DNA from: a phage
Length of the DNA: 47,573 nt
Direction: 5' to 3' (one strand)
Sequence record: PX132564.1
In this document: piece after piece, positions 27,242 to 47,573 of the stretch
Layout of the letters: each line of letters starts with the position of its first letter
How positions within the stretch are numbered: the stretch's first letter is position 1
Program-made: the position numbers and the translations under genes
The notes under the pieces: generated by a model
Told to the model about the DNA's origin: nothing
What the model saw: the letters and a program-made list of their open reading frames with translations, nothing else
The model's database searches: none

Positions 27242-27255
27242 TGATGATGTAAAAT

Positions 27256-27292: not shown

Positions 27293-27302
27293 TGGCTATT
27301 TT

Positions 27303-29961: not shown

Positions 29962-29971
29962 TCAGTGGTTG

Positions 29972-30163
29972 TCATACCTGGTCTCTCTCATCTGCTTCTG
30001 CTTTCGCCACCATCATTTCCAGCTTTTGTGAAAGGGATGTGGCTAACGTATGAAATTCTTCGTCTGTTTCTGCTGGTATTGGCACAAACCTGACTCCAAT
30101 TTGAGCAAGGCTATGTGCCAAATCAATACTCGTTCTTAACTCAACAGGAGATGCTTTGTGCAT
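29972..30163 (-). CDS. lambda Orf63-like protein
   Basis: 63-aa [29 protein letters not shown]... at the lambda orf63 position relative to exo. Confidence 0.6.
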   Translation of the reverse strand: MHKASPVELRTSIDLAHSLAQIGVRFVPIPAETDEEFHTLATSLSQKLEMMVAKAEADERDQV

Positions 30164-30324
30164 ACCGCCCCCCGTTTATTATTTATCTCCTCAGCCAGCC
30201 GCTGGGCTTTCAGCGGATTTCGGATAACAGAAAGACCGTGAAATACCCAGCCTCGCTTTGTAACGGAGTAGACGAAAGTGATCGCGCCTACCCGGATATT
30301 ATCGTGAGGATGGGTCATCGCCAT
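30136..30324 (-). CDS. lambda Orf60a-like protein
   Basis: 62-aa ORF immediately downstream of exo (lambda orf60a position). Confidence 0.6.
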
Positions 30325-30995
30325 TGCTCTCCAAATACAAAACCAATTTCAGCCAGTGCTTCGTCCATTTTTTCGATGAACTCCGGCACCATCTCGTCAA
30401 AACTCGCCATGTACTTTTCATCCCGCTCAACCACGACATAATGCAGGCCTTCACGCTTCATTCGTGGGTCATAGTTGGCAAAGTACCAGGCATCTTTTCG
30501 TGTCACCCACATGCTGTACTGCACCTGGGCCATGTAAGCCGACTTTATGGCCTCGAAACCACCGAGCCGGAACTTCATGAAATCCCGGGAGGTAAACGGG
30601 CATTTCAGCTCAAGGCCATTGCCGTCACTGCATAAACCATCGGGAGAGCAGGCGGTGCGCATACTTTCGTCGCGATAGATGATCGGGGATTCAGTAACAT
30701 TCACGCCGGAAGTGAATTCAAACAGGGTTCTGGCGTCGTTCTCGTACTGTTTTCCCCACGCCAGCGCCTTAGCATTAACTTCCGGAGCCACACCGGTGCA
30801 AACCTCAGCCAGCAGGGTGTGGAAGTAGGACATTTTCATGTCAGGCCACTTCTTTCCTGAGCGGGGCTTTGCTATCACGTTGTGAACTTCTGAAGCGGTG
30901 ATGACGCCGAGCCGTAATTTGTGCCATGCATCATCCCCCTGTTCGACAGCTCTCACGTCGATCCCGGTACGCTGCAGGATAATGTCCGGTGTCAT
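30315..30995 (-). CDS. exo: exonuclease (Red-alpha)
   Basis: 226 aa [43 protein letters not shown]..., lambda Exo. Confidence 0.96.
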
Positions 30996-31777
30996 GCTGC
31001 CACCTTCTGCTCAGTGGCTTTCTGTTTCAGGAATCCAAGAGCTTTCACTGCTTCGGCCTGTGTCAGTTCTGACGATGCGCGAATGTCGCGGCGAAATATC
31101 TGGGAACAGAGCGGCAATAAGTCGTCATCCCATGTTTTGTCCAGGGCAATCAGCAGAGTGTTAATCTCCTGCATGGTTTCATCGTTAACCGGAGTGATGT
31201 CGCGTTCCGGCTGACGTTCCGCAGTGTATGCAGTATTTTCGACAATGCGCTCGGCTTCATCCTTGTCATAGATACCAGCAAATCCGAAGGCCAGACGGGC
31301 ACACTGAATCATGGCTTTATGCCGTAACATCCGTTTGGGATGCGACTGCCACGGCCCCGTGATTTCTCTGCCTTCGCGAGTTTTGAATGGTTCGCGGCGG
31401 CATTCATCCATCCATTCGGTAACGCAGATCGGATGATTGCGGTCTTTGCGGTAAATCCGGCACGTACATGATTCATTGTCCTGCTCAAAGTCCATGCCAT
31501 CAAACTGCTGGTTTTCATTGATGATGCGGGACCAGCCATCAACGCCCACCACCGGAACGATGCCGTTCTGCTTATCAGGGAAGGCGTAAATTTCTTTCGT
31601 CCACGGATTAAGGCCGTACTGGTTGGCGACGATCAGCAATGCGATGAACTGCGCATCGCTGGCATCACCTTTAAATGCCGTCTGACGAAGAGTGGTGATC
31701 AGTTCCTGTGGGTCGACAGAATCCATGCCGACACGTTCAGCCAGCTTCCCAGCCAGCGTTGCGAGTGCTGTACTCAT
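30992..31777 (-). CDS. bet: recombinase Bet (Red-beta)
   Basis: 261 aa [48 protein letters not shown]..., lambda Bet. Confidence 0.96.
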
Positions 31778-31782
31778 CCGTT

Positions 31783-32079
31783 TTATACCTCTGAATCAAT
31801 ATCAACATGGTGGTGAGCAATGGTTTCAACCATGTACCGGATGTGTTCTGCCATGCGCTCCTGAAACTCAACATCGTCATCAAACGCACGGGTAATGGCT
31901 TTTTTGCTGGCCCCGCAGCGTTGCAAATGATCGATGCAGAGTGATTCAAACAGGTGCTGTGGAAGACCTTTTTCCATGTCGTCTGCCAGTTCTGCCTCTT
32001 TCTCTTCACGGGCGATCTGCTGGTAGTGACGCGCCCAGCTTTGAGCCTCAAGACGATCCTGAATGTAATAAGCGTTCAT
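31783..32079 (-). CDS. gam: Gam (RecBCD inhibitor), 98-aa form
   Basis: [46 protein letters not shown]..., lambda Gam; the track shows only the 98-aa form open. Confidence 0.9.
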
Positions 32080-32154
32080 GGCTGAACTCCTGAAAATGGC
32101 TGTGAAAATATCGCCTGCGAAATGCCGGGCTGATTAGGTAAACAGGAAAGGGGA

Positions 32155-32304
32155 TTAGTGATTCAGGCCGTTGCCGCGTCCGTCGAGAAAAACTTCCACG
32201 AGCAAATCACGGGTATAAGTGCGCTCGATGCCGCGATGCAGATAAAGCCGTCCGCGTAAATTAGCTGATGCAGTCCAGGTACCATCTTTGTGTTTGACCA
32301 GCAT
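32155..32304 (-). CDS. kil: Kil-like small protein (C-terminal part of track ORF 32155-32445)
   Basis: Stop is at the lambda kil position relative to gam; the upstream part of the 96-aa track ORF is not lambda-like, so the start is uncertain. Confidence 0.4.
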
Positions 32305-32651
32305 TCCTGGCATGACCGCACCGCGATTAACGGTCTGCGTTCCGTAATGTTGATGAACCATAAAAACTCCTGCCCGTAAGCTGGGCTGCTGAACATATAG
32401 AGACTTCTGCGCGTATTCAGGCGGTGGATGGCCGCCGGTTGTCATAACTAAGCCGCCTCGTTGAAGCGACTAAGGTATGAAATGTTGAGTTAATTTCAGC
32501 TGGTCACACCGACGTTCACGCGTCCGTTTCACCCCTCGCACTCCCCGAAGCCTGCTGAAATTCAAACTGCGGATCTAAGCGGTCATCGCAACGGTGAATC
32601 AGGTAGTTGCCGTATCGTTGTGTTGTTGCGATGAACTTATTTAAAACTATA

Positions 32652-32693
32652 GTTGTTTTATCGTCAACAACAAAAGTTGTTTTATTGGTTGTT
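32652..32693 (-). promoter_or_regulatory. OL-like operator cluster with leftward promoter
   Basis: GTTGTT / AACAAC hexamers at about 32652, 32666, 32676, 32688 forming GTTGTT-N8-AACAAC and AACAAC-N4-GTTGTT, the same half-site as the cI-cro operator; TTGACG -35-like on the minus strand. Confidence 0.45.
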
Positions 32694-32956
32694 TTAGATA
32701 TAACTGGTTGTATTTAGGATGGATTTATTTTGTGACTTGAATCGCATAGCGATAACTGAAGCGAGGTTATGGTGGTTTTTTTAACGGTGTGTGTGATGAG
32801 GGGAGGGCAAAAGAAAACCCGGCACGGTGACCGGGATTCTTACGCCGTTAGGTAAAGATATTATTGCGGTGGCTTAATATTACTACCTAGAGCAAAGATA
32901 GGAATTAGTTCTTTACTGAATGAGCACAATGCCCAGTTGATAATTTTTAATTGGTA

Positions 32957-33646
32957 CTACCCATGCTTCCTATATGTCTGCGGCATGCTCCCAATAACCT
33001 TACCGAAGATGAACACCCGGTTCATCTCGTCTTTCTCGATCGGGTCCCACGGTGAGTAGCTTTTGTTATCAGAGATGACCAGCAGCTTATCCTTCATCAT
33101 TTGCAGGCGCTTTACATGGGCTGTGTCGTCGTACAGAAACGCATAGATACCATCACCGTCGAAAGATTTAACTGTGATATCAACGAACAGCAGATCACCT
33201 GGTTCGATCGTTCCTGACATGCTGTCACCACGCACGTTAATGATGCGGATATTTTCCGCCTTCCTACCATCGAACATGTGACGAGCATCGTCAAACGAGT
33301 ACTCAACCGAGCGTAGAACTTCTACAAACTCACGGTTGATGACTCCCGGCCCAGCACTGACTTCTATATCAAGAACGTCAATCTTGAAGTATTTGGAATG
33401 GCTGACAGTTGATTGTATTGGTTGCACTGTACTGTCTGACATATTTCCAACGCCAGAAGATAACCATTCTGCGCGCACACCCAAAGCGTTCGCGATCTCC
33501 ACGATTTTAGTTGTTTGATTAGCTTTCCCTGTTTCGATTTTCTGAATAGCAGCCTGGCTAACCCCGACCAAATCCCCAAGCGCCTTTTGTGTAAGGCCTC
33601 GCGCTAATCTGGCTTCTTTAAGTCTTTCTGAGAGTGTTGTTTTCAT
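32957..33646 (-). CDS. cI: CI-type repressor (HTH_XRE N-terminus, LexA/S24 peptidase-like C-terminus)
   Basis: MKTTLSERLKEARLARGLTQKALGDLVGVSQAAIQKIETG... HTH, then C-terminal ...INVRGDSMSGTIEPGDLLFVD...VKRL... with Ser/Lys dyad motifs; divergent from cro; not lambda cI. Confidence 0.85.
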   Translation of the reverse strand: MKTTLSERLKEARLARGLTQKALGDLVGVSQAAIQKIETGKANQTTKIVEIANALGVRAEWLSSGVGNMSDSTVQPIQSTVSHSKYFKIDVLDIEVSAGPGVINREFVEVLRSVEYSFDDARHMFDGRKAENIRIINVRGDSMSGTIEPGDLLFVDITVKSFDGDGIYAFLYDDTAHVKRLQMMKDKLLVISDNKSYSPWDPIEKDEMNRVFIFGKVIGSMPQTYRKHG

Positions 33647-33690
33647 AGTCCAAATGTACAACCAAGGTTTTATTCCATCAAACGAAAATG

Positions 33691-33723
33691 GTTGTTGACT
33701 AAAAACAACCATAGTTTTAATCT
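33691..33723 (+). promoter_or_regulatory. OR-like operator palindrome overlapping a pR-like promoter
   Basis: ATGGTTGTT-GACTAAA-AACAACCAT palindrome; TTGACT (-35) inside it, 17-bp spacer, TAATCT (-10), then GGAGG RBS and cro ATG. Confidence 0.55.
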
Positions 33724-33750
33724 TGATTCAAATTAACCACGGAGGTTGTT

Positions 33751-33981
33751 ATGAACCCAGCTATCAAAACAGCGATCAATATCGTTGGTTCACAAAAGAA
33801 ACTGGGCGCTGCTTGCGAAGTTTCACAGCAGGCCGTCTATAAGTGGCTTCACAACAAAGCAAAGGTATCCCCTGAACATGTCGGCAGCATTGTTACGGCT
33901 ACTGGTGGAGTAGTGAAGGCATACCAGATTCGCCCGGATCTTCCGAAGTTGTTTCCACACACCGAAAAGAACGCAGCTTAA
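33751..33981 (+). CDS. cro: Cro-type repressor
   Basis: 76-aa HTH protein (…KKLGAACEVSQQAVYKW…) divergent from cI with strong RBS. Confidence 0.8.
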   Translation: MNPAIKTAINIVGSQKKLGAACEVSQQAVYKWLHNKAKVSPEHVGSIVTATGGVVKAYQIRPDLPKLFPHTEKNAA

Positions 33982-33993
33982 ATTTCCATTTCA

Positions 33994-34006
33994 CGCTCTT
34001 TAACAA
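33994..34006 (+). promoter_or_regulatory. boxA-like element (nutR position)
   Basis: CGCTCTTTAACAA just after cro, matching the rrn/lambda boxA consensus (T/C)GCTCTTTAACAA as I recall it; no obvious boxB hairpin follows. Confidence 0.4.
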
Positions 34007-34050
34007 TAAGCAATCAACTTAACAGTCAATTCAAACTAAAGGAGTCAATT

Positions 34051-34590
34051 ATGCAACCACTTACATACCAACAGACTAGCGGATTTAGCCCGACTGCGGT
34101 GATAAATCGTTCTCAAACAAAACAGGTGCCAGGCCACGAAAAAATCCGTGATGCCGTCCGCGCCTGGTCGGCTGTAGATAATCAGGATGTCGTTGCCACA
34201 CTCATTGTGAATGAGTATCTGGAGCAGGGCGGCGGCACCATCGATTTCCCTGATGATGTCAGCCGTGCACGCCAGAAGCTGTTCCGCTTCCTCGATAACA
34301 AATTCGATTCTGAAAAATACCGAAATAACGTGCGTGAACTGACCCCGGCAATTCTGGCGGTACTACCGCTGGAATATCGCGGTTACCTGGTTGAGCAGGA
34401 TAGCTTCATGGCTAGGTTGGCTGAAATGGAAAAGGAACTCAGTGAGGCAAAACAGGCTGTCATTCTCAACGCACCACGCCACCAGAAACTGAAGGAAATT
34501 AGTGAAGGTATTGTGTCGATGTTTCGTGTGGACCCAGATCTGGCTGGTCCATTGATGGCGATGGTTACTACCATGCTGGGGGCGATATGA
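34051..34590 (+). CDS. CII-like / YdaT-family regulatory protein (putative)
   Basis: 179-aa ORF in the cII position with AAGGAG RBS; not lambda CII; family assignment from recollection only. Confidence 0.45.
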   Translation: MQPLTYQQTSGFSPTAVINRSQTKQVPGHEKIRDAVRAWSAVDNQDVVATLIVNEYLEQGGGTIDFPDDVSRARQKLFRFLDNKFDSEKYRNNVRELTPAILAVLPLEYRGYLVEQDSFMARLAEMEKELSEAKQAVILNAPRHQKLKEISEGIVSMFRVDPDLAGPLMAMVTTMLGAI

Positions 34591-34676
34591 CAGGTTCAGA
34601 AATGGCGAAAGCCGGTCTGCTGGAACAGAACCGACTTTCAGGTGCAAATCGTAACACACTCATTGCGGGAGGAATT

Positions 34677-35606
34677 ATGGCAAACACTGCTGAGATATTC
34701 AATTTTCCAGTGCCGGATGCGGCACAAAAGGAGCCGCGCGTGGCAGATCTCGATGATGGTTATACGCGCATTGCAAATGAGTTGCTGGAAGCTGTGATGC
34801 TGGCCGGATTAACACAGCACCAGCTTCTGGTCTTTCTGGCTGTCATGCGCAAAACATATGGCTTTAATAAAAAACTGGATTGGGTTAGCAACGAGCAACT
34901 TTCCGAATTAACCGGGATATTGCCGCACAAGTGTTCTGCTGCAAAAAGTGTTCTGGTAAAGCGTGGGATTTTTATTCAGAGCGGGCGGAATACCGGCATT
35001 AATAATGTGGTCAGTGAATGGTCAACATTACCCGAATCAGGTAAGAAAAATAAAGTTTACCTGAAAGAGGTAAATTTACCTGAATCAGGTAAAAAAAGTT
35101 TACCCAAATCAGGTAAAGGCGTTTACCCGAATCAGGTAAACACAAAAGACAAACTAACAAAAGACAATATAAAACCTTTTTCGTCCGAGAATTCTGGCGA
35201 ATCCTCTGACCAACCAGAAAACGATCTTCCTGTGGTGAAACCGGATGCTGCAATTCAGAGCGGCAGCAAGTGGGGGACAGCAGAAGACCTGACCGCCGCA
35301 GAGTGGATGTTTGACATGGTGAAGACCATCGCGCCATCAGCCAGAAAACCGAATTTTGCAGGGTGGGCTAACGATATCCGCCTGATGCGTGAACGTGACG
35401 GACGTAACCACCGCGACATGTGCGTGCTGTTCCGCTGGGCATGCCAGGACAACTTCTGGTCCGGTAACGTGCTAAGTCCGGCCAAACTCCGCGACAAGTG
35501 GACCCAACTCGAAATCAACCGTAACAAGCAACAGGCAGGCGTGACAGCTAGCAAACCAAAACTCGACCTGACAAACACAGACTGGATTTACGGGGTGGAT
35601 CTATGA
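34677..35606 (+). CDS. O: replication initiator O
   Basis: MANTAEIFNFPVPDAAQKEPRVADLDDGYTRIANELLEA... is lambda O N-terminus-like; GGGAGG RBS before the ATG at 34677; ori iterons inside. Confidence 0.85.
   Translation: MANTAEIFNFPVPDAAQKEPRVADLDDGYTRIANELLEAVMLAGLTQHQLLVFLAVMRKTYGFNKKLDWVSNEQLSELTGILPHKCSAAKSVLVKRGIFIQSGRNTGINNVVSEWSTLPESGKKNKVYLKEVNLPESGKKSLPKSGKGVYPNQVNTKDKLTKDNIKPFSSENSGESSDQPENDLPVVKPDAAIQSGSKWGTAEDLTAAEWMFDMVKTIAPSARKPNFAGWANDIRLMRERDGRNHRDMCVLFRWACQDNFWSGNVLSPAKLRDKWTQLEINRNKQQAGVTASKPKLDLTNTDWIYGVDL
35031..35140 (+). repeat. replication origin iterons inside O (four 18-19 bp repeats TTTACC(C/T)(G/A)AATCAGGTAAA) followed by an A/T-rich segment
   Basis: Copies at about 35031, 35076, 35098, 35121, each an internal inverted repeat TTACC...GGTAA; A-rich stretch 35141-35180. 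Confidence 0.7.
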
Positions 35607-36304
35607 AAAACATCGCCGCACAGATGATTAACTTTGACCGTGAGCAGATGCGTCGGATCGCCAACAACATGCCGGAACAGTACGACGAAAAGCCGCAGGT
35701 ACAGCAGGTAGCGCAGATAATCAACGGTGTATTCAGCCAGTTACTGGCAACTTTCCCGGCGAGCCTGGCTAATCGTGACCAGAACGAACTGAACGAAATC
35801 CGCCGCCAGTGGGTTCTGGCTTTCCGGGAAAACGGGATCACCACGATGGAGCAGGTGAGCGACGGAATGCGTGTTGCCCGTCGGCAGAATAGACCATTTC
35901 TGCCATCACCCGGGCAGTTTGTTGCATGGTGCCGGGAAGAAGCATCCGTTACCGCCGGGCTGCCAAACGTCAGCGAGCTGGTTGATATGGTTTACGAGTA
36001 TTGCCGGAAGCGTGGTCTGTATCCGGATGCAGAGTCTTATCCGTGGAAATCAAACGCGCACTACTGGCTGGTTACCAACCTGTATCAGAACATGCGGGCC
36101 AATGCGTTGACTGACGCGGAATTACGGCGCAAGGCTGCCGATGAACTGGCCTGTATGACCGCGCGAATTAACCGTGGTGAGGCTATACCTGAACCAGTAA
36201 AACAACTTCCTGTCATGGGCGGTAGGCCTCTAAATCGTGCACAGGCTCTGGCGAAGATCGCAGAAATCAAAGCTAAGTTCGGGCTGAAAGGAGCGATGAA
36301 ATAG
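35603..36304 (+). CDS. P: replication protein P (DnaB helicase loader)
   Basis: 233 aa MKNIAAQMINFDREQMRRIANNMPEQYDEKPQVQQVAQIINGVFSQLL..., lambda P. Confidence 0.95.
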   Translation: MKNIAAQMINFDREQMRRIANNMPEQYDEKPQVQQVAQIINGVFSQLLATFPASLANRDQNELNEIRRQWVLAFRENGITTMEQVSDGMRVARRQNRPFLPSPGQFVAWCREEASVTAGLPNVSELVDMVYEYCRKRGLYPDAESYPWKSNAHYWLVTNLYQNMRANALTDAELRRKAADELACMTARINRGEAIPEPVKQLPVMGGRPLNRAQALAKIAEIKAKFGLKGAMK

Positions 36305-36553
36305 AGCTAAAGTATTAGCTTAAAAATAAAGTATACCTAGCGAATATAATCTAGGACTAGTTGTAACGCCCGAAATGATTGATTGCGTGAGCAACAAAAT
36401 TTTTCTTCCATTGTTGTGAAATCATTTAGCCATAAAGTTTATGCAGAGATTTTATTTTATTTTTGAGTTGATTTTTTTGTAACGAGCTGTATATTTCGCG
36501 CCTCTTGTCATACCAGTTATTTTTTTCATTATATTCATAACGTTGATTGAACT

Positions 36554-39500
36554 ATGACCACTGTGAATAAAAAGTTAAAAAAAACTGCATCTGGCGCGAT
36601 TACATGGTCGGTAATTGTTACCCAGATATTATCTCCAGTTTCTCTTTCTTTGATCCCAGCAAACAGTTTTGCATCATCTGGTAATAAAGATGTTACGCAA
36701 ATTTATGCCAGCGATGAGCATGCAAATAAAGTGGCCTCATTTGCAGCAAGTGCAGGTCAGAGCCTGGCGAATAATAATGCAAGTAGTTTTGCTGTAAATA
36801 CTTTATCAACTCAGGCGACAAAAGAGGTCGTCGACTGGTTGCAACAATATGGCAATGCGCGCATCAAGCTTAATGTCGATGATTCTTTTTCCTTGAAGGA
36901 TTCATCATTCGACTTTTTATATCCATGGCTGGATACTCAGGATTATGTGTTATTCAGTCAGACATCACTACATCGTACTGATGACCGAAATCAGACCAAT
37001 ATTGGTTTGGGGATTCGTCATTTCACTCCTGATAACGCAATGTTGGGTGCGAATGTTTTCTATGATTACGATTTAAGTCGTAGTCACTCTCGTGCAGGTT
37101 TTGGGGTTGAGTACTGGAGGGATTATTTCAGGCTTGGTGTAAATACCTATTTTGGTCTATCTGACTGGAAGAACAGTCGTGATATTGATGATTATCTGGA
37201 AAGACCTGCAAATGGCTGGGATTTTTCTGCTGAAGGATGGCTACCTGCTTATCCGCAATTAGGGGCATCTATTCAGTTTGAAAAATATTATGGTAAAAAT
37301 GTCGGGTTATTTGGAAGCGATAACCTGCAGGAAAACCCTTACGCAGTTACTGGGGGAATTTCTTATACACCAGTTCCTCTGATTAAGTTTTCTGCACAGC
37401 ATAAGCAAGGACAGAGCAACACTCACGATACAACCTTTGGTGTTGAGTTTAATTATCGCCCGGGCGTTTCCTTGGCTGAACAGCTTAGCAGCGATAATGT
37501 TGCAGTTATGCGAGAAGTCCAGAACCGGCGTTATGATTTTGTTGAACGAAATAACAACATTGTTCTGGAGTACAAGAAGAAGCATGCACTGAAAATCAGT
37601 TTGCCAGAGTCTGTTCAGGGGGAGGGGGAATCAATCATCCCTGTAACACTGACAATCAACAATGCTAGTGGTGGTATCAAGTCTGTACAGTGGAATGATA
37701 GTGCATTCACTGCGGCTGGCGGCAAGATCAGTGGAAATGGCACATCATGGCAGATCACTTTACCGGCTTATAAAAGCGAAGGTGTAAATTCGTGGAATGT
37801 TGGAGCCACAGTACAGGATAACAGAGGCAACGTTTCCAACTATGCCGTGATGAATATTAGCGTTACTGATAGTGGTGTCTCGACGGCTGATTCGTCTTTT
37901 ACACTGGATGGAGATTCGTCGCCGACAATCTCTGCTGATAGCCAATCCACTTATCCGATAGTATTAAGCCTGAAAGATAGTAACGGTAAGGCATTAACCG
38001 GACTGGCTGATGACATTGAAATGTCAGTGGAATTTACAGCAGATAGCAATAGTGCTCGACAGCGTGAAACGGTAACTGCTCCGTCATTAGGCGCGGTAGA
38101 GGAAATCTCTGCTGGGGTATATCGCTCTAAAAGCGAAGGTGTAAATTCGTGGAATGTTGGAGCCACAGTACAGGATAACAGAGGCAACGTTTCCAACTAT
38201 GCCGTGATGAATATTAGCGTTACTGATAGTGGTGTCTCGACGGCTGATTCGTCTTTTACACTGGATGGAGATTCGTCGCCGACAATCTCTGCTGATAGCC
38301 AATCCACTTATCCGATAGTATTAAGCCTGAAAGATAGTAACGGTAAGGCATTAACCGGACTGGCTGATGACATTGAAATGTCAGTGGAATTTACAGCAGA
38401 TAGCAATAGTGCTCGACAGCGTGAAACGGTAACTGCTCCGTCATTAGGCGCGGTAGAGGAAATCTCTGCTGGGGTATATCGCTCTGTTCTGGCTGCTGGT
38501 TCGCAGGCTGGTACGGTACGTGTAACTGCAAAAGTTCAGGGAAAAACATTTACTCTCAGTATTAAGCAAACAGCAACAACAGAACCTGATTCTGAGGTCA
38601 GTGCTGTTTTAACCGCTGCACCAGCAGAACAGGTAGTTGGTTACAATATCAATCTACAACTGGCAGTGAAGGATTCACAAGGAAATGCAATCACTGGTGA
38701 TAACACTCTGAGCTTTTATGCTCTTAACCAGGCAGAAGGAGTCGAGTTTGGGACTGTAACGGAAAAAGACGGTGTCTATAGCGCGACAGTAACTTCAAAA
38801 CGAGCTGGTAAGATTACTATCGGTGTTAAATCTGATAGTCATGATTTCTCAGGTGTTAAGAAAGAAATCACCTTTATTGAGGACCGGCAGCAGGTTACAT
38901 TCTCTCAGTTTGAAGCCAGCCAAAATAATGCATTGGCTGATGGAAAACAGAGAAATATGGTAACTGTAAGCCTTGCGGACCGTTTCGGCAATGTTGTTCC
39001 TGGTTATGCTGTCACATTGTCTTTACCAGCAGGGATAACTCAAGTTGGTGGTGAACATGCTGTTTCAACTGACGAAAATGGTAATGCTATTTTTGCGTTA
39101 ATAAGCTCCACTCCGGGGTCTTACGTGATTACAGCTCATGCTGGTTCTCAGATGTCTACTGAGTTAACAGTGACCTTTGCATCAAATATGACCGGAGCTT
39201 CACTGTCACTGACGCCTGAAAGCAGTAGTTTAATTTCCAATATTCCTGCTAATGGTAAGGATGCAGCGGTATTAGATGTGCAGCTGACAAATACGAATGC
39301 GTCGGTCAATGGGCAAAAGATTCAGCTCATCACCTCATCTGAAGGATTATCTGTACCAACAAATATCGTGACTGATTCAACAGGGCATGTTTCTGTTCCG
39401 CTTACAACGGTGAAAGCTGGTGAGTACACGGTGACTGCACGGGTGACTGACGGTTCCCATAGCGTGGAATCTGGCAGCGTTAAGTTAACTTTTGTGCCCG

Positions 39501-40462
39501 ATGTTGCTTCTGCAGAACTGAATATGAGTGTATCAAAACAGGAGATTGTGGCCGATGGCAGTGAAAACGCAACAGTAAACATTCAGTTGGTTGATGCGAA
39601 TAACAATGCGTTTACAGGCGAGGTGGATTTAACGATTACACCATCGACGGGAGCATCATTGACCAGTAGTAATCTGCAACTGGATGCTCATGGACAGGCA
39701 ACAACGCAGTTCACTGCATCGAAATCAGGCCAGTACACAATTCAGGCCGAGTATGTTCTGGATGGGAAACGCATAACCGCAAGCCAGAATATTGATGCCG
39801 TGACGGATGTGAAGGGGGCTGTGTTGGAGATCACATCATCTGCATCTTCGGCTGTAGTGAGCGATACCAACAATCTGGTATTTACGTTACTGTTGAAAAG
39901 TAAGTCAGGCGAAGCATTAAGTGGTCGAGCATTGAATGTTAAGACATCTGGGCCGTCTAAATATGGTGCGTTGGTGGTTGATAAAACCACAGTAACGACT
40001 GATGAGAACGGTCAGGCTACGGTAAGCGTACATGGTCGAACGGTTGGTTCGTATAAATTAACGGCGACCTTAAACGAACTTGGCAGTGATGTTAGCGCGG
40101 TGAAATCATTCTCCCTGTACGCTGATGACGCAAATGGAGTATTGACTCTAACAAAAGATCCTGGTTATGAGACAAACGATGGATCTCCAGTAGGTATTTA
40201 TGCTCGATTTGTCGATCATTTTGGAAACCCATTATCTGGTACGGTTGAGTTTTCTGCTGGTAGTGAAGATAGTCCAGACTCTCAACGGGTCAAAATGGAG
40301 CCTGCTACAGTAACGTTACACTGGACAGGTAATGCAGCTTCGGAATTCAGCACCTATGAAAGTGGTTATCACTGGATTAAGGCCAAAATAACGAATAGCA
40401 AAAATACATATGAGAAAACAATAAGGACTTATGTTGTAAAACTACCTGAAAAGGATAGTTAA
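36554..40462 (+). CDS. invasin/intimin-family inverse autotransporter adhesin with multiple Big (Ig-like) repeats
   Basis: 1302 aa; signal peptide, then a beta-barrel region (…LFSQTSLHRTDDRNQTNIGLGIRHF…NPYAVTGGISYTPVPL…DRNNNIVLEYKKK) resembling Yersinia invasin/intimin, then serial Ig-like repeats; AT-rich upstream. Confidence 0.85.
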   Translation: MTTVNKKLKKTASGAITWSVIVTQILSPVSLSLIPANSFASSGNKDVTQIYASDEHANKVASFAASAGQSLANNNASSFAVNTLSTQATKEVVDWLQQYGNARIKLNVDDSFSLKDSSFDFLYPWLDTQDYVLFSQTSLHRTDDRNQTNIGLGIRHFTPDNAMLGANVFYDYDLSRSHSRAGFGVEYWRDYFRLGVNTYFGLSDWKNSRDIDDYLERPANGWDFSAEGWLPAYPQLGASIQFEKYYGKNVGLFGSDNLQENPYAVTGGISYTPVPLIKFSAQHKQGQSNTHDTTFGVEFNYRPGVSLAEQLSSDNVAVMREVQNRRYDFVERNNNIVLEYKKKHALKISLPESVQGEGESIIPVTLTINNASGGIKSVQWNDSAFTAAGGKISGNGTSWQITLPAYKSEGVNSWNVGATVQDNRGNVSNYAVMNISVTDSGVSTADSSFTLDGDSSPTISADSQSTYPIVLSLKDSNGKALTGLADDIEMSVEFTADSNSARQRETVTAPSLGAVEEISAGVYRSKSEGVNSWNVGATVQDNRGNVSNYAVMNISVTDSGVSTADSSFTLDGDSSPTISADSQSTYPIVLSLKDSNGKALTGLADDIEMSVEFTADSNSARQRETVTAPSLGAVEEISAGVYRSVLAAGSQAGTVRVTAKVQGKTFTLSIKQTATTEPDSEVSAVLTAAPAEQVVGYNINLQLAVKDSQGNAITGDNTLSFYALNQAEGVEFGTVTEKDGVYSATVTSKRAGKITIGVKSDSHDFSGVKKEITFIEDRQQVTFSQFEASQNNALADGKQRNMVTVSLADRFGNVVPGYAVTLSLPAGITQVGGEHAVSTDENGNAIFALISSTPGSYVITAHAGSQMSTELTVTFASNMTGASLSLTPESSSLISNIPANGKDAAVLDVQLTNTNASVNGQKIQLITSSEGLSVPTNIVTDSTGHVSVPLTTVKAGEYTVTARVTDGSHSVESGSVKLTFVPDVASAELNMSVSKQEIVADGSENATVNIQLVDANNNAFTGEVDLTITPSTGASLTSSNLQLDAHGQATTQFTASKSGQYTIQAEYVLDGKRITASQNIDAVTDVKGAVLEITSSASSAVVSDTNNLVFTLLLKSKSGEALSGRALNVKTSGPSKYGALVVDKTTVTTDENGQATVSVHGRTVGSYKLTATLNELGSDVSAVKSFSLYADDANGVLTLTKDPGYETNDGSPVGIYARFVDHFGNPLSGTVEFSAGSEDSPDSQRVKMEPATVTLHWTGNAASEFSTYESGYHWIKAKITNSKNTYEKTIRTYVVKLPEKDS
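37772..38485 (+). repeat. perfect tandem duplication, 2 x 357 bp (119 codons), inside the adhesin gene
   Basis: Protein segment KSEGVNSWNVGATVQDNRGNVSNYAVMNISVTDSG...EEISAGVYRS occurs twice back to back; antisense track ORFs 37760-37945 and 38087-38302 are identical over their shared 60 residues. Confidence 0.9.
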
Positions 40463-40473
40463 CAAAATTGAAT

Positions 40474-40500
40474 GGGGAGGGCTTAGCCCTCCCTCTTTTT
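40474..40500. terminator. bidirectional rho-independent terminator between convergent adhesin and esterase genes
   Basis: GGGGAGGGC-tta-GCCCTCCC(T)C followed by TTTTT on plus and an A/T-rich run on minus. Confidence 0.7.
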
Positions 40501-41542
40501 ACAGGTTAGCGTTTGGGTTTTGTTGTTGGGGAGCTGTTTTTATAGGCGCTCCCAGGTTTTTAGTAAACCACTCAACGACTCTGTTTATAATAATTGGCTG
40601 ATACCATGTCTTATCGCCATGCTCGGCCCCTTCTACCAGCACGTACTCAGCGTTATCACCGTTCTTCTTCAACATCCTGAATAGTTTGGCGCTTTGCTCA
40701 GGTGAAACCAGAGTGTCTTTGCTACCATGCATAATAAGAAATGGGGGTTTTACTCCTTTCATATGTCCGATTGGACTGGCGTTTAGCGCTTTTTCTTTTG
40801 ACGCTGTGATGGGGGCTCCCGCAAAATTTCTGAATGCAGGGCCATTGATCATTAAGGCTTCGGTTACGGCAGGAGAGCGATGAACCTCCTGCACTGATTC
40901 AGGGAACCCCTCGCCAATATTCAACAAGTCAGAAATCCCATAAAGTGTGGCAACTGCCTGAACATCTGAGGATTGCTGAAGAAAGTCACCTTTATCAAAG
41001 GTTTTGTCACCATTTGTAGTTCCCATCATCTGGGCAAGCCATCCACCGGCAGAGTCACCCAGAACTCCGATTCTTTGAGGATCAATCCCATAATTGCTGG
41101 CATGCTCTCTCAGGTAACGTATTGCAGCTTTTCCATCCTCAACTGGTGCTGGAAATGTATCAGGAATTGTTCTGTATTCTACAGCGGCCACAACAAAACC
41201 AGCTTCTGCCAGAGCCATTCTCATTTCAATAAATTTGTCATGTTCAGAAGACATGAATCCGCCGCCGGGATAATAAATAATGGCTGGTTTTAAATCATTT
41301 GTTCGCGGGACAAGAACTGACATGTGAAGCTGTCTGACAGAACGAGTTCCTTTTATCTGGGAATAAACAACATCACCAATGAGATCGACCTGGTTTCTGG
41401 TCGGTGAAACACTAATGATATCTGCACCCGGGGTGTAACCAGGAAGATTAGTCTGGACAGGTGTTGCACAACTCCCGACCGACATGGCCATTGACATACC
41501 ATACAATAGTGTTGCAGATGATAATATCTTGTTAATTTTCAT
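40499..41542 (-). CDS. alpha/beta-hydrolase esterase/lipase, probable lipoprotein
   Basis: 347 aa; lipoprotein-type signal ending in Cys; oxyanion-hole PGGGF, nucleophile elbow GDSAGG, C-terminal HG. Confidence 0.8.
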   Translation of the reverse strand: MKINKILSSATLLYGMSMAMSVGSCATPVQTNLPGYTPGADIISVSPTRNQVDLIGDVVYSQIKGTRSVRQLHMSVLVPRTNDLKPAIIYYPGGGFMSSEHDKFIEMRMALAEAGFVVAAVEYRTIPDTFPAPVEDGKAAIRYLREHASNYGIDPQRIGVLGDSAGGWLAQMMGTTNGDKTFDKGDFLQQSSDVQAVATLYGISDLLNIGEGFPESVQEVHRSPAVTEALMINGPAFRNFAGAPITASKEKALNASPIGHMKGVKPPFLIMHGSKDTLVSPEQSAKLFRMLKKNGDNAEYVLVEGAEHGDKTWYQPIIINRVVEWFTKNLGAPIKTAPQQQNPNANL

Positions 41543-41989
41543 GTTTTACATGCCTTGACTTATCGGATGAAATTCTCTTACTAAATTTAACGGCAGTTTA
41601 ATAGCCGTACAACTCGTGGTAGCCAGGGAAATATCCCAGTCGTGGTTAAGGTTGTACTTGACGGCTATTATTTCAACAATGCTTAAAGTGAGAGCTTAAG
41701 GTTATGCGTATGTTTTACAGTCCGAGTAGATTCTGACCAATAGCTTCTTTGTATAATTCTGTCAGAAATAAATCTTGGCTTGCATGAAGTTTGAGACCTT
41801 ATCTTGTTTGATTATGAATAATCAATTCGCCATAATTGTATCACCGGAGCCTGAACAACTCCGGTGACTTCTGCGCTAAACGGGGACGTTTATGCGCACA
41901 CACAATCCAAACTCTCTTCTCCCTTCACAGATGCAGAAATGCACCTGCGTTTTTTTGCATCTAGCGTCTGACCTCTGTGGAGGTGAAGC

Positions 41990-42445
41990 GTGAACCTACC
42001 ACAAGATGGCATCAAACTGCATCGCGGTAACTTCATCGCTATCGGCCAGCAGATCCAGCCTTATCTGGAGAACGGAAAATGCTTTCGCATGGTGCTTAAA
42101 CCGTGGCGTGAGAAACGCAGTCTTTCCCAGAATGCACTCAGCCACATGTGGTACAGCGAAATCAGTGAATACCTCATCAGCAGGGGGAAATCGTTCGCTA
42201 CCGCAGCATGGGTAAAAGATGCTCTCAAACACACATACCTCGGTTATGAAACCAAGGACCTGGTTGATGTCGTAACCGGCGAAATCACTACTATCCAGTC
42301 GTTACGCCATACCTCCGATCTCGATACCGGAGAGATGTATGTCTTCCTGTGTAAGGTTGAAGCCTGGGCGGTGAATATTGGCTGCCACCTGACTATTCCG
42401 CAGAGCTGCGAGTTCCAGCTGCTGCGCGACAAGCAGGAGGCGTAA
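41990..42445 (+). CDS. ninB: NinB-like recombination protein (putative)
   Basis: 151 aa, GTG start; contains KRSLSQN...W like the NinB RSLDQN motif; first gene after the nin-region insert. Confidence 0.55.
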
Positions 42446-42615
42446 TGGCTACACCGCTTATTCGTGTCATGAACGGACACATCTACAGAGTACCAAATCG
42501 TCGTAAGCGTAAGCCTGAGCTGAAACCATCCGAAATACCAACACTGCTCGGATATACCGCCAGCCTGGTTGATAAAAAATGGTTGCGACTGGCAGCAAGG
42601 AGGAATCATGGCTGA
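42445..42615 (+). CDS. NinE-like small basic protein (putative)
   Basis: 56-codon ORF coupled (TAATG) to ninB and overlapping the ybcO start; below track cut-off. Confidence 0.35.
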   Translation: MATPLIRVMNGHIYRVPNRRKRKPELKPSEIPTLLGYTASLVDKKWLRLAARRNHG

Positions 42616-42898
42616 CTTGAGAAAAGCAGCGCGTGGTCGGGAATGCCAGGTAAGAATCCCTGGCGTATGTAATGGCAATCCTGAAACGTCAGTACTGGCA
42701 CATATCCGGCTGGCTGGATTGTGCGGTACCGGTATCAAACCGCCAGACCTGATTGCCACCATTGCATGTTCTGCCTGCCACGACGAAATCGACCGTCGCA
42801 CGCATTTTGTTGACGCTGGATATGCAAAAGAATGTGCGCTGGAAGGTATGGCGAGAACACAGGTTATCTGGCTGAAAGAGGGGGTAATTAAGGCGTGA
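42608..42898 (+). CDS. ybcO: YbcO-like (DUF1364) putative nuclease
   Basis: [42 protein letters not shown]..., recalled as DLP12 YbcO; Cys-rich. Confidence 0.75.
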
Positions 42899-43257
42899 AT
42901 ACTTACTGCATCACACTACCCTGGCCGCCGAGCAATAATCGCTATTACCGCCATAATCGCGGACGCACGCATATCAGCGCAGAGGGGCAGGCATACCGCG
43001 ATAATGTCGCCCGAATCATTAAAAACGCAATGCTGGATATCGGCCTGGCTATTCCTGTGAAAATCAGCATTGAGTGCCACATGCCGGATCGCCGTCGCCG
43101 TGACCTTGATAATCTGCAAAAGGCCGCTTTTGACGCACTCACCAAAGCAGGTTTCTGGCTGGATGATGCTCAGGTCGTTGATTACCGCGTTGTGAAGATG
43201 CCCGTTACCAAAGGTGGGAAGCTGGAGCTGACTATCACTGAACTGGGAGATGAATGA
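42895..43257 (+). CDS. rusA: Holliday junction resolvase RusA
   Basis: 120 aa [45 protein letters not shown]..., RusA. Confidence 0.92.
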
Positions 43258-43394
43258 TGTTTGAGTCTTATATGGCAGAACGTCTTCGCCGCCGCTGGGT
43301 GCGCCTGCGCTTATATCGTTTTCCTAGTTCTGTTTTGACCGATTACCGGATACTGAAGAATTACGCCAAAACACTGAAAGGAGCTGCCGCATGA
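43254..43394 (+). CDS. ylcG: YlcG-like small protein
   Basis: 46 codons [46 protein letters not shown], overlapping rusA stop and Q start. Confidence 0.5.
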
Positions 43395-44080
43395 ATACCC
43401 AATATTTACAGTATGTCCGCGAGCAACTCATTGTGGCTACCGCTGATTTGAGCGGAGCAACGAAAGGACAGCTTGAAGCCTGGCTGGAGCATGCACAATT
43501 TGATACTGGTACATACAAACGAAAGAAGCCGCGCATTCTGGATGAGGTAACTGGCAGGATGATTACGCTGGATAATCCGCCGATTTCCGGTAAGCAGTTG
43601 TACGCAAAAGGTTCATCCATTGCACTGGTCAGCCAGGTTGAGTTCTCAACCTCGTCATGGCGCCGCGCGGTTCTGTCTCTCGAAGAACATCAGAAAGCGT
43701 GGTTGCTGTGGAGTTACAGCGAAAGTGTTCGCTGGGAACATCAGGTCACCATAACGCAGTGGGCATGGAGCGAGTTTAAGACTCTGTTGGGTACCAGGAA
43801 AATTGCAGGTAAAACACTGGAACGTTTGAAGAAGTTGATCTGGCTGGCGGCACAGGATGTGAAGAACGAGCTGGCAGGGCGTAAGACCTATGAATACCAG
43901 GAGCTGGCATCACTGGTGGGAGTGACATCAAAAAACTGGTCTGAGACATTTACTGAACGCTGGGTTGCAATGAAGCACATTTTTCTACAGCTTGATAGCC
44001 AAGCTTTATTGCTTTTAACGAAAACACGTTCAAAACAAAAGACCATATTTTCACAGCAAGATATTGCAAAACTGGATTAA
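43391..44080 (+). CDS. Q: late-gene antiterminator Q (putative, non-lambda type)
   Basis: 229-aa ORF immediately upstream of a promoter/terminator region and the lysis genes; not lambda Q by sequence. Confidence 0.55.
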   Translation: MNTQYLQYVREQLIVATADLSGATKGQLEAWLEHAQFDTGTYKRKKPRILDEVTGRMITLDNPPISGKQLYAKGSSIALVSQVEFSTSSWRRAVLSLEEHQKAWLLWSYSESVRWEHQVTITQWAWSEFKTLLGTRKIAGKTLERLKKLIWLAAQDVKNELAGRKTYEYQELASLVGVTSKNWSETFTERWVAMKHIFLQLDSQALLLLTKTRSKQKTIFSQQDIAKLD

Positions 44081-44261
44081 AAATCATATATTTTATGTAA
44101 ATCTGATATTTTGCCAATGTTGTACGCACTGGCAGTAATCCAAATTCAAGCCCGAGGTTTAAAGCCTTGGGCTTTTCTGTTTCTGAACGGTGAGTAGCCT
44201 TCCAACCTACCCCAGCCAGGGTGTCTTCAGCTGTTGAGTTGATATTGCTTAACCCTCTGTT

Positions 44262-44285
44262 GCCAGCTACATGCTGGCTTTTTTA
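44262..44285 (+). terminator. tR'-like rho-independent terminator in the late leader
   Basis: GCCAGC-tacat-GCTGGC followed by TTTTTTA; a second hairpin plus T run lies near 44147-44180; candidate -35 TTGCCA near 44113. Confidence 0.5.
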
Positions 44286-44401
44286 TTCCAGGCTTGCGGG
44301 GAGCATCAACTCCGTGCTTTGTCGTTAAATTACCCCGTGAGCCTGATTTCTGACATTTAACGTCCCGGCCTTTTGTCGGCGGCGAAACATTGGCTATTCA
44401 T

Positions 44402-44707
44402 ATGCACGAAAAAGAGAGCCTTGCCGGAGCGTTCTGGCTCGTTTTGCTGATCATCGCAGGTTGGGGCGGTCTGGTCCGCTACCTGATAGATGTGAAGCAG
44501 AGTAAAGCAACGTGGAGTTGGATAAATGCTCTGGCTCAAATAGTGGTATCAGGATTCACCGGTGTTATTGGTGGCCTGATCAGCATCGAAAGTGGATTCA
44601 GTATTTACATGATTCTCGCGACAGCGGGGATTAGTGGTGCGATGGGTTCGGTTGCACTGACGTACTTCTGGGAACGACTGACAGGGGTGAAAAATGCAAA
44701 ATCTTAA
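44402..44707 (+). CDS. S: holin (three predicted helices), not lambda S
   Basis: ORF directly upstream of and overlapping R; three hydrophobic segments; track ORF starts at TTG 44390, ATG at 44402. Confidence 0.65.
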   Translation: MHEKESLAGAFWLVLLIIAGWGGLVRYLIDVKQSKATWSWINALAQIVVSGFTGVIGGLISIESGFSIYMILATAGISGAMGSVALTYFWERLTGVKNAKS

Positions 44708-45170
44708 TCCTCAGCGTAAAGCCTTCCTCGATATGTTGGCGTGGTCAGAAGGAACGGATAACGGGCGACAACCGACACGTAACCACGGTTATGATGTTAT
44801 TGTTGGCGGCGAACTGTTTACTGATTACTCCGATCACCCTCGCAAACTTGTCACGCTACACCCCAAACTCAAATCAACAGCCGCCGGACGTTATCAGCTT
44901 CTTTCACGCTGGTGGGATGCTTACCGTAAACAGCTTGGTTTGAAAGACTTCTCCCCCAAAAGCCAGGACGCAGTGGCATTACAGCAGATTAAAGAGCGTG
45001 GTGCTTTACCGATGATTGATCGCGGTGATATCCGTCAGGCAATCGACCGTTGCAGCAATATCTGGGCTTCACTGCCGGGCGCTGGTTATGGTCAGTTCGA
45101 GCATAAGGCTGACAGCCTGATTGCAAAATTCAAAGAAGCTGGCGGAACGCTCAGAGAGAGTGAGGTATGA
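44694..45170 (+). CDS. R: endolysin R (lytic transglycosylase)
   Basis: 158 aa ...[46 protein letters not shown]..., lambda R. Confidence 0.95.
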
Positions 45171-45628
45171 GCAGAATAACCGCGATTATCTCCGCTCTGG
45201 TTATCTGCGTCATCGTCTGCCTTTCATGGGCGGTTAATCATTACCGCGATAACGCGATTACCTACAAAGCCCAGCGCGACAAAAATGCCAGAGAACTGAC
45301 GCTGGCGAACGCGGCAATTACTGACATACAGATGCGTCAGCGTGATGTTGCTGCGCTCGATGCAAAATACACGAAGGAGTTAGCTGATGCGAAAGCTGAA
45401 AATGATGCTCTGCGTGATGATGTTGCCGCTGGTCGTCGTCGGTTGCACATCAAAGCAGTCTGTCAGTCAGTGCGTGAAGCCACCACCGCCTCCGGCGTGG
45501 ATAATGCAGCCTCCCCCCGACTGGCAGACACCGCTGAACGGGATTATTTCACCCTCAGAGAGAGGCTGATCACTATGCAAAAACAACTGGAAGGAACCCA
45601 GAAGTATATTAATGAGCAGTGCAGATAG
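45167..45628 (+). CDS. Rz: spanin inner-membrane subunit Rz
   Basis: 153 aa [44 protein letters not shown]..., lambda Rz. Confidence 0.92.
45387..45569 (+). CDS. Rz1: spanin outer-membrane lipoprotein Rz1, embedded in Rz
   Basis: 60 aa [60 protein letters not shown], lipobox VVGC, Pro-rich; +1 frame inside Rz. Confidence 0.88.
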
Positions 45629-45659
45629 AGCTGCCCATATCGATGGGCAACTCATGCAA

Positions 45660-45953
45660 TTATTGTGAGCAATACACACGCGCTTCCAGCGGAGTATAAA
45701 TGCCTAAAGTAATAAAACCGAGCAATCCATTTACGAATGTTTGCTGGGTTTCTGTTTTAACAACATTTTCTGCACCACCACAAATTTTTGCTGCATCGAC
45801 AGTTTTCTTCTGCCCAATTCCCGAAACGAAGAAATGATGGGTGATGGTTTCCTTTGGTGTTACTGCTGTAGGTTTGTTTCCAACAGTAAACGTCTGTTGA
45901 GCACATCCTGTAATAAGCATTGCCAGAGCGGCAGAAAACAACATTTTTTTCAT
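45660..45953 (-). CDS. bor: Bor lipoprotein (serum resistance)
   Basis: MKKMLFSAALAMLITGCAQQTFTVGNKPTAVTPKETITHHFFVSGIGQKKTVDAAKICGGAENVVKTETQQTF..., lambda Bor; start at internal ATG of track ORF. Confidence 0.92.
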   Translation of the reverse strand: MKKMLFSAALAMLITGCAQQTFTVGNKPTAVTPKETITHHFFVSGIGQKKTVDAAKICGGAENVVKTETQQTFVNGLLGFITLGIYTPLEARVYCSQ

Positions 45954-46433
45954 CTTATTATCCTGCATTGTTAAAAACGGCAGAATCCTATGTGACAACA
46001 ATTAAACGATAGTTAAATGGATTGATGAAAATTAAAACTACACAGGTGGGCTCAGACTATTGGAGGAAGTTGGGGACACTCAGAATCCTGTGGAATGAAA
46101 TAAACCGGTCTATCCGTCCATTACCCTTTTAGCTGCGCTGTATCGTCGCCGTATTCCCGCATTAACCATGACCGTAGCCCGACGGGGAATTCCTTCTGCG
46201 TGAGTGTGCGGGAATAATTAAAAACGATGCACACCGGGTTTTTACCGCGTTAATGATTCGCGGGTTTATCCCGGTGCGATGGTGGAAGAAACAGGAAGCT
46301 GTATTACAGAAAGTGCTACTACTGTATCCCGATGCGATGTATGTAATGTGAGTCAGATAATGGCACAGGATGTGGTGATGTGGCAGTCTGGAACACAGGA
46401 TATATTGTCAGAATAAGACCCGTAGGAATAAAA

Positions 46434-46760
46434 ATGAAAAGACGCCTTTTACTACTTTTTCTGTTATCTGTCCTGGCAGTGGGATGCTCGCAGCAAAAAG
46501 CTGATGAGCCCCGGCAATTAGTGACGGTGTATCCACGATATCCGGAATATGCTGCAGCAAATTATATCAAGGGGCTGGTTGAGGTTAAGTTCGATATTGG
46601 TGCTGATGGGACTGTGACACGGATCGTTTTTCTCCGCTCAGAGCCTCATAATTTGTTTCGTGATGAAGTGGTGAAGGCCATGGCGAAATGGCGATTTGAA
46701 AAGAATCGCCCCTGTCAGGGAGTGAAGAGACAATTTATCTTTACGCCGTCACGTCCTTGA
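46434..46760 (+). CDS. lipoprotein with TonB-C-terminal-like fold (putative envelope protein)
   Basis: MKRRLLLLFLLSVLAVGCSQ lipobox; YPRYPEYAAANYIKGLVEVKFDIGADGTV...AMAKWRF resembles TonB_C; AGGAAT RBS. Confidence 0.55.
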   Translation: MKRRLLLLFLLSVLAVGCSQQKADEPRQLVTVYPRYPEYAAANYIKGLVEVKFDIGADGTVTRIVFLRSEPHNLFRDEVVKAMAKWRFEKNRPCQGVKRQFIFTPSRP

Positions 46761-46882
46761 TGCTTCCAGGTAGAGAGGGGCTGGAAGCAGGAGAAAAATG
46801 AAAGAGCCAGCGGTTATATTTTTGTCATGGCTGACGAGGAATGATGGAAGAAGGCGTTGTATGCCACACAACGCCTCACTGT

Positions 46883-47062
46883 TCATTTCTTCTTTTTCTC
46901 TGGTGGAACCCGATGAATAAGAGTTGCACTGGTTTCCGATGAGATGGCGATATACTCGGGCAAAGTATGCTGGCAGTTTTCCAACTGGTCAAAAATACCT
47001 GCTCTCGTCTGTTGCAATGCCTGCAGCATGCGGCGGCAATGCGCCTTGCTTTTACTAACCAT
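46883..47062 (-). CDS. hypothetical small protein (59 aa)
   Basis: MVSKSKAHCRRMLQALQQTRAGIFDQL... preceded by strong RBS GAGGAAGGAAAG; chosen over the longer overlapping track ORF. Confidence 0.35.
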   Translation of the reverse strand: MVSKSKAHCRRMLQALQQTRAGIFDQLENCQHTLPEYIAISSETSATLIHRVPPEKKKK

Positions 47063-47123
47063 CTTTCCTTCCTCTATCAGTCGCTGCGTGAACTCATCAT
47101 GGAATACCAGGTAAATGCGGATG

Positions 47124-47375
47124 TTATCGGTTTTGGCTACGCAGCATAGTACAAAACGGACAGGTGCATCCCGGGACGGGGGAGGCGTCACATGTCCCTG
47201 TGATGGTTGTTCCGGGTAATGTACTGTGTGGGGCATAAAAATGTCCGATAATTTTACTTTCTACCGCAGTTAGTTGATTCGTTGGTCCTGGTAGCACATT
47301 GGGCGAGGATTTAAATGCCAGGCAACTGAAGGATGATGTCGCAAGGGAGATAGCGAGAATATTTCTGATTTTCAT
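47124..47375 (-). CDS. hypothetical small secreted protein (83 aa)
   Basis: MKIRNILAISLATSSFSCLAFK signal-peptide-like N-terminus, Cys-rich C-terminus; start at internal ATG of track ORF. Confidence 0.35.
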   Translation of the reverse strand: MKIRNILAISLATSSFSCLAFKSSPNVLPGPTNQLTAVESKIIGHFYAPHSTLPGTTITGTCDASPVPGCTCPFCTMLRSQNR

Positions 47376-47523
47376 TTGATGATGCCTCTGTGTGAAATGA
47401 CGGTAAACGACGCACTTGTGCCGGCACATAATAGCAAGCACCATAATAGATCAGATTCGATTCTTGCTGTAAGTGATAATTATTCTCGTTTTCGGGTCCT
47501 TTCCGTCGATCCAACAGGTTACG

Positions 47524-47535
47524 GGGCGGCGACCT
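47524..47535 (+). other. cosN cohesive-end sequence GGGCGGCGACCT
   Basis: Identical to the lambda 12-nt cohesive end as I recall it, followed by the lambda left-end leader that continues into position 1. Confidence 0.75.
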
Positions 47536-47573
47536 CGCGGGTTTTCGCTATTTATGAAAATTTTCCGGTTTAA

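Follow-up and report, generated by a model that had tools for sequence, protein, structure and literature searches.

The window analysed here, that is the whole stretch of 47,573 nucleotides of sequence record PX132564.1, very probably represents a temperate lambdoid phage in full, as a single unit genome that is circularly permuted and opens 50 bp rightward of the top-strand nick in cosN. As judged from its sequence, the cos formed by the two ends together is a chimera, in which the cosQ side of phage 21 is joined to the cosN/cosB side of lambda. The original prediction had spoken of a whole genome, and this is borne out: the window holds exactly one unit, its ends abut within cos and no chromosomal flanks accompany it. 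Its length is 98.1% of that of lambda. Lambda packages genomes of about 75-105% of its own length, so that at 98% the window genome falls inside these limits. For annotation, the window is thus best treated as a complete, circularly permuted phage genome.

The two ends rejoin into one cos

The 12-nt cohesive end of lambda (bp 1-12), GGGCGGCGACCT, has a single exact match in the window, on the + strand at 47524-47535. By arithmetic, about 0.006 exact matches to a 12-mer would turn up by chance in 47.6 kb when both strands are counted; with at most one mismatch to GGGCGGCGACCT, shuffled sequences average 0.19 matches. The flanks of cosN, ...TTACG to the left of GGGCGGCGACCT and CGCGG to its right, are the same as in lambda, conserved CG dinucleotides included. 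The cohesive end had been announced 39 bp before the end of the window: it is indeed present, but it is followed by 38 bases.

The joined ends were compared with lambda (NC_001416) and phage 21 (OL657228) in a three-way alignment. Window 47524-47573 is identical to lambda bp 1-50 without any mismatch and window base 1 corresponds to lambda bp 51; as foreseen, the end joined to the start is collinear with the cos of lambda, without indel across the boundary. Positions 1-139 differ from lambda bp 51-190 by seven substitutions and one 1-bp deletion. These 139 bases precede the nu1 ATG at 140, which agrees with the earlier statement that the window start continues the cos leader into nu1. No overlap or direct terminal repeat exists between window end and start, the longest exact overlap being 0.

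The same junction is found as continuous DNA elsewhere. The 800-bp join sequence (47174-47573 followed by 1-400) is contiguous in 560 of the 5,426 complete E. coli genomes, and it is 100% identical in many E. coli genomes, including JJ1887 and O25b:H4 strains. In the prophage of strain FXCREC028, 99.9% identical to the window, position 47573 runs directly into position 1, and does so twice. At the window boundary nothing is lost and nothing is doubled.

The notion of a genome joined at cos stands in that the ends abut within cos; the break itself does not coincide with the cohesive end. It lies between cosN and cosB R3, at about the first base of R3. As 50 bp separate them from the top-strand nick on their left, the window termini are not virion termini. 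By analogy with lambda, the nicks would fall at 47523/47524 (top strand) and 47535/47536 (bottom strand), and the predicted virion ends should be annotated there, not at the window ends. Signs of pac-type (headful) packaging were sought in the terminase, the cos and the window ends and none was seen: TerL is lambda-like, cos is complete and the two ends share no repeat.

Two phages contribute to cos

Joining end to start rebuilds a full cos, with cosQ, cosN, R3, I1, R2 and R1 in this order, then lambda-type nu1 and A:

47494-47500, + strand: cosQ heptamer GGGTCCT, 24-30 bp left of the nick, the offset at which cosQ is annotated in OL657228
about 47519-47540: cosN
47513-47540: 28-bp block identical in lambda and phage 21, holding all of cosN
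1-16, + strand: cosB R3, a TerS binding site, core CGTTTCC at 3-9; extent drawn by analogy to R3 (bp 50-65) in OL657228
24-36, - strand: cosB I1, the IHF site, reverse complement AAACATTAAGTTA, at the position of lambda bp 74-86
57-72, - strand: cosB R2, inverted relative to R3 and R1, core GGAAACG at 64-70, same as lambda
99-115, + strand: cosB R1, core CGTTTCC at 104-110, same as lambda
140-685, + strand: nu1, small terminase subunit (TerS)
660-2585, + strand: A, large terminase subunit (TerL)

The spacing from cosN to R3 is that of lambda, and I1 equals the IHF consensus that the phage 21 record cites for this site. The changes in cosB relative to lambda (seven positions, and the 1-bp deletion between R sites) all lie outside the R cores and I1.

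To the left of cosN the resemblance is to another phage. Over the 951 bases that precede the cohesive end (46573-47523) the window matches the right end of phage 21 at 100% identity, and it is there that the phage 21 record annotates cosQ; lambda is unalignable on this side, except for the last 45 bp or so. In the three-way alignment the last base specific to phage 21 is 47512 and the first base specific to lambda is 47541, so the switch from 21 to lambda occurs somewhere in the 28 bp of 47513-47540. A lambda cos, as first proposed, therefore describes cosN, cosB and the terminase well; it does not describe what stands left of cosN, the flank of cosQ included, which is from phage 21. The annotation of the site should name phage 21 for the cosQ side, and lambda both for the cosN/cosB side and for the packaging specificity.

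A lambda-type terminase

The genes for TerS and TerL lie directly downstream of cosB. Nu1 shares 178 of its 181 residues (98%) with lambda Nu1 and only 53% with the TerS of phage 21; gpA shares 634 of 641 residues (98.9%) with lambda gpA and 417 of 643, about 65%, with the phage 21 protein. Residues 1-44 of Nu1 are those of lambda, including Glu24 in the recognition helix of the winged helix-turn-helix (wHTH). In R3 the bases corresponding to lambda bp 56 (T, window position 6) and bp 59 (C, window position 9) are also the lambda alleles. R3 bp 56 and 59 together with TerS Glu24 were reported as determinants of lambda-versus-21 recognition (PMC4669245), so that the lambda alleles at both bases and the Glu24 of Nu1 point to lambda packaging specificity for the window phage.

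Initiation of packaging takes cosN and cosB, whereas termination, for which cosQ is the signal, takes cosQ and cosN; both cosQ and cosN are identical in lambda and 21 (PMC4669245). Hence a right end derived from phage 21 should be fully compatible with a lambda-specific terminase. If the known lambda pathway holds for this phage, Nu1 dimers would span the bend that IHF makes at I1, binding R3 and R2 on either side of it, and would place gpA for the nicking of cosN; the DNA would then be packaged rightward, up to the next cos, where cosQ and cosN would end the process. The 98-99% identity to the lambda terminase, with unaltered cosN and cosB sites, suggests that the phage is competent for packaging.

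A mosaic genome with bacterial-type cargo

The gene order is nu1-A-heads-tails-J-sitABCD-attP-int-red-immunity-O/P-Q-lysis-cos. The original prediction of a vegetative order is confirmed, this order being collinear with those of lambda and phage 21. BLAST against the full lambda and phage 21 genomes, together with the listing of open reading frames, gives the following map:

1-17920: lambda 51-18002, 96.9% identity; nu1, A, W, B, C, D, E ... J
47541 through 1 to 17920: lambda-type cosB, terminase, head and tail
7786-19974: also phage 21, 94.8%; tail genes common to both phages
20875-32161: phage 21, 98.3%; sitABCD, icd fragment, attP, int, xis and exo/bet/gam (red module)
32161-45167: mostly neither lambda nor phage 21; immunity, replication, Q and lysis, with S24 repressor, cro, YdaT-domain protein, O-like and P replication proteins, inverse-autotransporter adhesin, esterase, ybcN/ninE/rusA, Q, holin and endolysin
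35140-36294: short lambda-like stretch in O/P, 94.9% to lambda and 94.4% to phage 21
44699-46007: short lambda-like stretch, 92.2% to lambda; its part 44699-45167 (endolysin) belongs to the 32161-45167 region
45167-47523, + strand: right-arm end block from phage 21 (2.36 kb), 99.66% to the right end of OL657228 (40575-42931); Rz/Rz1, bor/iss, TonB-C fragment and cosQ flank

The structural open reading frames have lambda-like lengths, with no truncation visible.

It had also been claimed that no host DNA is present apart from icd. Chromosomal flanks are indeed absent, but the window carries bacterial-type cargo, which is also found in related phages:

21659-25108, - strand: sitABCD, complete iron/manganese ABC transporter operon, in the b-region from the tail fibre genes to attP
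36554-40462, + strand: inverse-autotransporter adhesin of 1,302 aa, IAT_beta and five Big_1/Invasin_D3 domains, intimin/invasin-like
40499-41542, - strand: alpha/beta hydrolase (esterase)
46380-46760, + strand: TonB C-terminal fragment, Pfam TonB_C only, shared at 100% with the right end of phage 21

To these is added bor/iss in the right arm. SitABCD is placed as in phage 21, within the 98.3% identical block. The adhesin gene lies between the replication gene P and the nin region and contains a perfect tandem repeat of 357 bp in 2.0 copies (37771-38485); the exact 1,302-aa protein was not on record in a large protein collection. The repeat is present in more copies in FXCREC028, and in strain 4/1-1 the distance from att to cos is greater by 357 bp. 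ISEc23 also interrupts the adhesin gene of FXCREC028, at window 40268-40275, with an 8-bp overlap that resembles a target duplication.

The immunity region (32957-34590) is neither that of lambda nor that of phage 21:

32957-33712, - strand: S24/HTH repressor
33751-33981: small cro-like open reading frame
34051-34590: YdaT toxin-domain protein, sitting where lambda has cII

In the related prophage NC-SV the paper that describes it places a small RNA, svsR, at the 3' end of cI. A tRNA scan and an Rfam scan of the whole window found nothing.

Integration at icd

The integration module is of the phage 21 type, and the attP should be annotated as such (phage 21/icd type):

26895-27291, + strand: attP, phage 21 (icd) type, intact
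26895-26906 (one) and 27255-27291 (three): attP arm-type repeats, consensus YTTYCCCCAAAA, on both sides of the core
within 27026-27035: crossover core, from the comparison of attL, attR and attP in FXCREC028
27026-27189: icd 3' fragment, with its terminator to about 27242
27303-28445, - strand: tyrosine integrase, phage 21 type, Pfam Arm-DNA-bind_1 and Phage_integrase
28435-28671: xis, within the block 98.3% identical to phage 21

The attP region is 98.7% identical to phage 21 attP/int records. Homology to icd begins at 27026, and the first host-type base in attR of FXCREC028 is 27036. The left arm of the window corresponds to the phage side of attR in that strain, and the right arm to the phage side of attL. 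The icd 3' fragment is matched by all 5,426 E. coli genomes; in nearly all of those bearing the integrase, the match to 26500-27800 starts at 27026 and is fused to the 5' part of the host icd, which is attL. The phage thus supplies a substitute icd 3' end, and its insertion keeps icd intact.

Set against the att sites of FXCREC028 (attL, attR and the internal attP), the window also proves to have an intact attP and neither attL nor attR, as had been stated. A contiguous attP was found in no PLSDB plasmid, and the exact pattern of the intact attP is absent from GTDB genome contigs, JGI metagenome contigs and IMG/VR. Its distance of about 27 kb from cos is that of 23 virion-derived phage records.

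Strain FXCREC028 (NZ_CM135822.1, 154259-255416) is assembled with two head-to-tail copies of the phage at icd. The 112 kb annotated there read icd-attL-int...cos...J-sit-[attP]-int...cos...J-sit-attR-ymgL, with a unit of 50,470 bp, and every base of the window maps inside its attL-attR prophage unit.

How the window and its cos may have arisen

An integrated prophage with its flanks was considered and rejected: the window ends lie inside cos and abut, and attL and attR are missing. The earlier statement that the window is not a prophage with host flanks is therefore right about the flanks. That it is not a prophage at all does not follow from the layout: as FXCREC028 is assembled as a tandem double lysogen, vegetative order and intact attP do not exclude a chromosomal source. 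Any cos-to-cos stretch of FXCREC028 would show the layout of the window, intact attP in mid-stretch, FXCREC048 is assembled in the same way, and dilysogens of exactly this kind serve as packaging substrates in the helper-packaging work of the Feiss laboratory (PMC4669245). This calls for caution in similar cases, a tandem lysogen displaying the same two features as a free phage genome. We nevertheless consider it improbable that the window was cut cos-to-cos from the chromosome of a tandem double or multiple lysogen, or from a replicating concatemer. A contiguous attP occurs in only two of the 5,426 complete genomes, FXCREC028 and FXCREC048, against the 23 phage records, and the FXCREC028 tandem could itself be an assembly artefact combining prophage and excised circles. 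Besides, the FXCREC028 copies differ by ISEc23 and by extra 357-bp repeats, which disqualifies FXCREC028 as the source. A stretch taken arbitrarily from a chromosome would hardly measure exactly one unit and have ends that abut to the base; both features favour a circular or unit-length phage record. It is harder still to believe that the window is a defective element that is not packaged, its chimeric cos or mosaic joint being inviable and cos a mere relic. The seven substitutions and the 1-bp deletion in cosB could be read in this way, but cosQ, cosN, the R3, R2 and R1 cores, I1 and the Nu1 wHTH with its Glu24 are all intact, the structural genes have full lambda-like lengths, the genome at 98% of lambda is of packageable size, and isolated complete phages (Perceval, PhiR47_2, PhiR57_1 and PhiR63_2) share the same cos, 21 on its left and lambda on its right. 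We thus retain the reading of the window as a complete phage genome.

The chimeric cos may have arisen as a by-product of packaging. A single exchange at another place, between genomes of lambda type and of 21 type, would give a mixed concatemer or cointegrate; if packaging then began at a lambda-type cosB and ended at the following cos, whose left side is of 21 type, the resulting chromosome would have a lambda end on its left and a 21 end on its right, and the two would anneal at the next infection into a chimeric cos. As the halves of cos are parted at each packaging and re-annealed at the next infection, no recombination at cos would be needed. Alternatively, the switch was made by homologous or short-homology recombination inside the conserved cos block. 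This block of about 75 bp (about 47490-47565) is nearly identical in lambda and 21 and long enough for a Red- or RecA-mediated exchange, and the switch is placed no finer than 28 bp; the packaging route and an exchange within cos leave identical sequences. Such an exchange is possible, though we judge it rather unlikely: the packaging route asks for no event at cos, termination taking only cosQ and cosN (PMC4669245), and all combinations of flanks occur in nature, as expected if the two sides of cos part and rejoin at every generation.

These combinations were counted by typing 300 bp on each side of cosN in the IMG/VR contigs found with four short cos patterns (left flank / right flank):

lambda / lambda: 41 contigs
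21 / 21: 22 contigs
21 / other: 16 contigs
21 / lambda, the combination of the window: 14 contigs
lambda / 21: 7 contigs
lambda / other: 2 contigs

A typing of the cos halves by 47-nt patterns (counts of 40, 15, 52 and 7) proved too coarse and was replaced by these 300-bp flank identities; several contigs with "lambda-like" first 23 bp had in fact 21-like or other cosB flanks. The IMG/VR flanks of cosN include at least one further cosB type, neither lambda nor 21.

Natural populations are thus consistent with a free reassortment of cos halves. To go further and see in cosN a natural module boundary, at which cosQ and cosB halves would reassort freely among co-resident lambdoid phages of differing specificity, is a speculation that we hold to be doubtful. 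A related idea, likewise doubtful, is that natural icd tandem lysogens, as assembled in FXCREC028 and FXCREC048, might allow packaging in situ, from cos to cos, without excision. If true, the two ideas would extend lambda genetics to natural populations, neither being a new mechanism.

Related phages

Lambda (NC_001416) has the same cohesive end, bp 1-50, R3-I1-R2-R1 layout and R cores as the window. It differs by its att/int module, its immunity, most of the nin/Q region and its right end, and it integrates at attB-lambda (gal-bio), whereas the window phage integrates at icd.

Phage 21 (OL657228, Jouyvirus) is alike where lambda is not: its right end, cosQ flank included, is 99.7-100% identical, and the region from sitABCD through icd', attP, int and xis to exo/bet/gam shows 98.3% identity, its icd fragment and attP arm repeats being those of the window. 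On the other hand the relation drops to 53-70% for its cosB R sites, terminase and head genes, and its immunity, Q and holin/endolysin modules are different. It also possesses tRNA-Asn and tRNA-Thr genes downstream of Q, which are absent from the window (43391-44700 compared with phage 21 15283-15438).

Close relatives among Escherichia phages are Perceval (OV696612), PhiR47_2 (PV340567), ev017, PhiR57_1 and PhiR63_2, which combine the 21 right end with the lambda left end in the same manner and match large parts of the window at 97-100% identity, none being identical overall. The best matches in the phage collection are 97-98.5% identical with partial coverage, and no record is identical. Coverage of the right half of the window is 70% for Perceval and 67% for PhiR47_2; the latter is 100% identical over the last 1,001 bases (46573-47573). 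The record of PhiR47_2 (PV340567.1) starts at window 27174, where the icd fragment is in its final codons and the crossover core lies about 140 bp to the left; this start is neither cos nor the exact att crossover.

Lambda-like prophages at the icd site of phage 21 have been described, for example NC-SV of E. coli NC101 (PMC12803456). These prophages (NC-SV, those of ST131 type such as JJ1887, and FXCREC028) are integrated, permuted at att and bounded by attL and attR, whereas the window has attP. Both the phage type and the combination of a 21 with a lambda side of cos are already public, in Perceval, PhiR47_2, ev017 and IMG/VR. The window phage belongs to a kind of temperate phage that is common in E. 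coli and already described; its arrangement is ordinary, so that it leaves the current understanding unchanged.

Textbook lambda genetics already treats cosQ and cosN as interchangeable between lambda and 21. The lambda-21 hybrids of the Feiss laboratory obey the same principle as the window phage, cosQ and cosN being interchangeable and cosB having to match TerS (PMC4669245). Those hybrids are constructed crosses, whereas the window phage is a natural mosaic, widespread in E. coli genomes.
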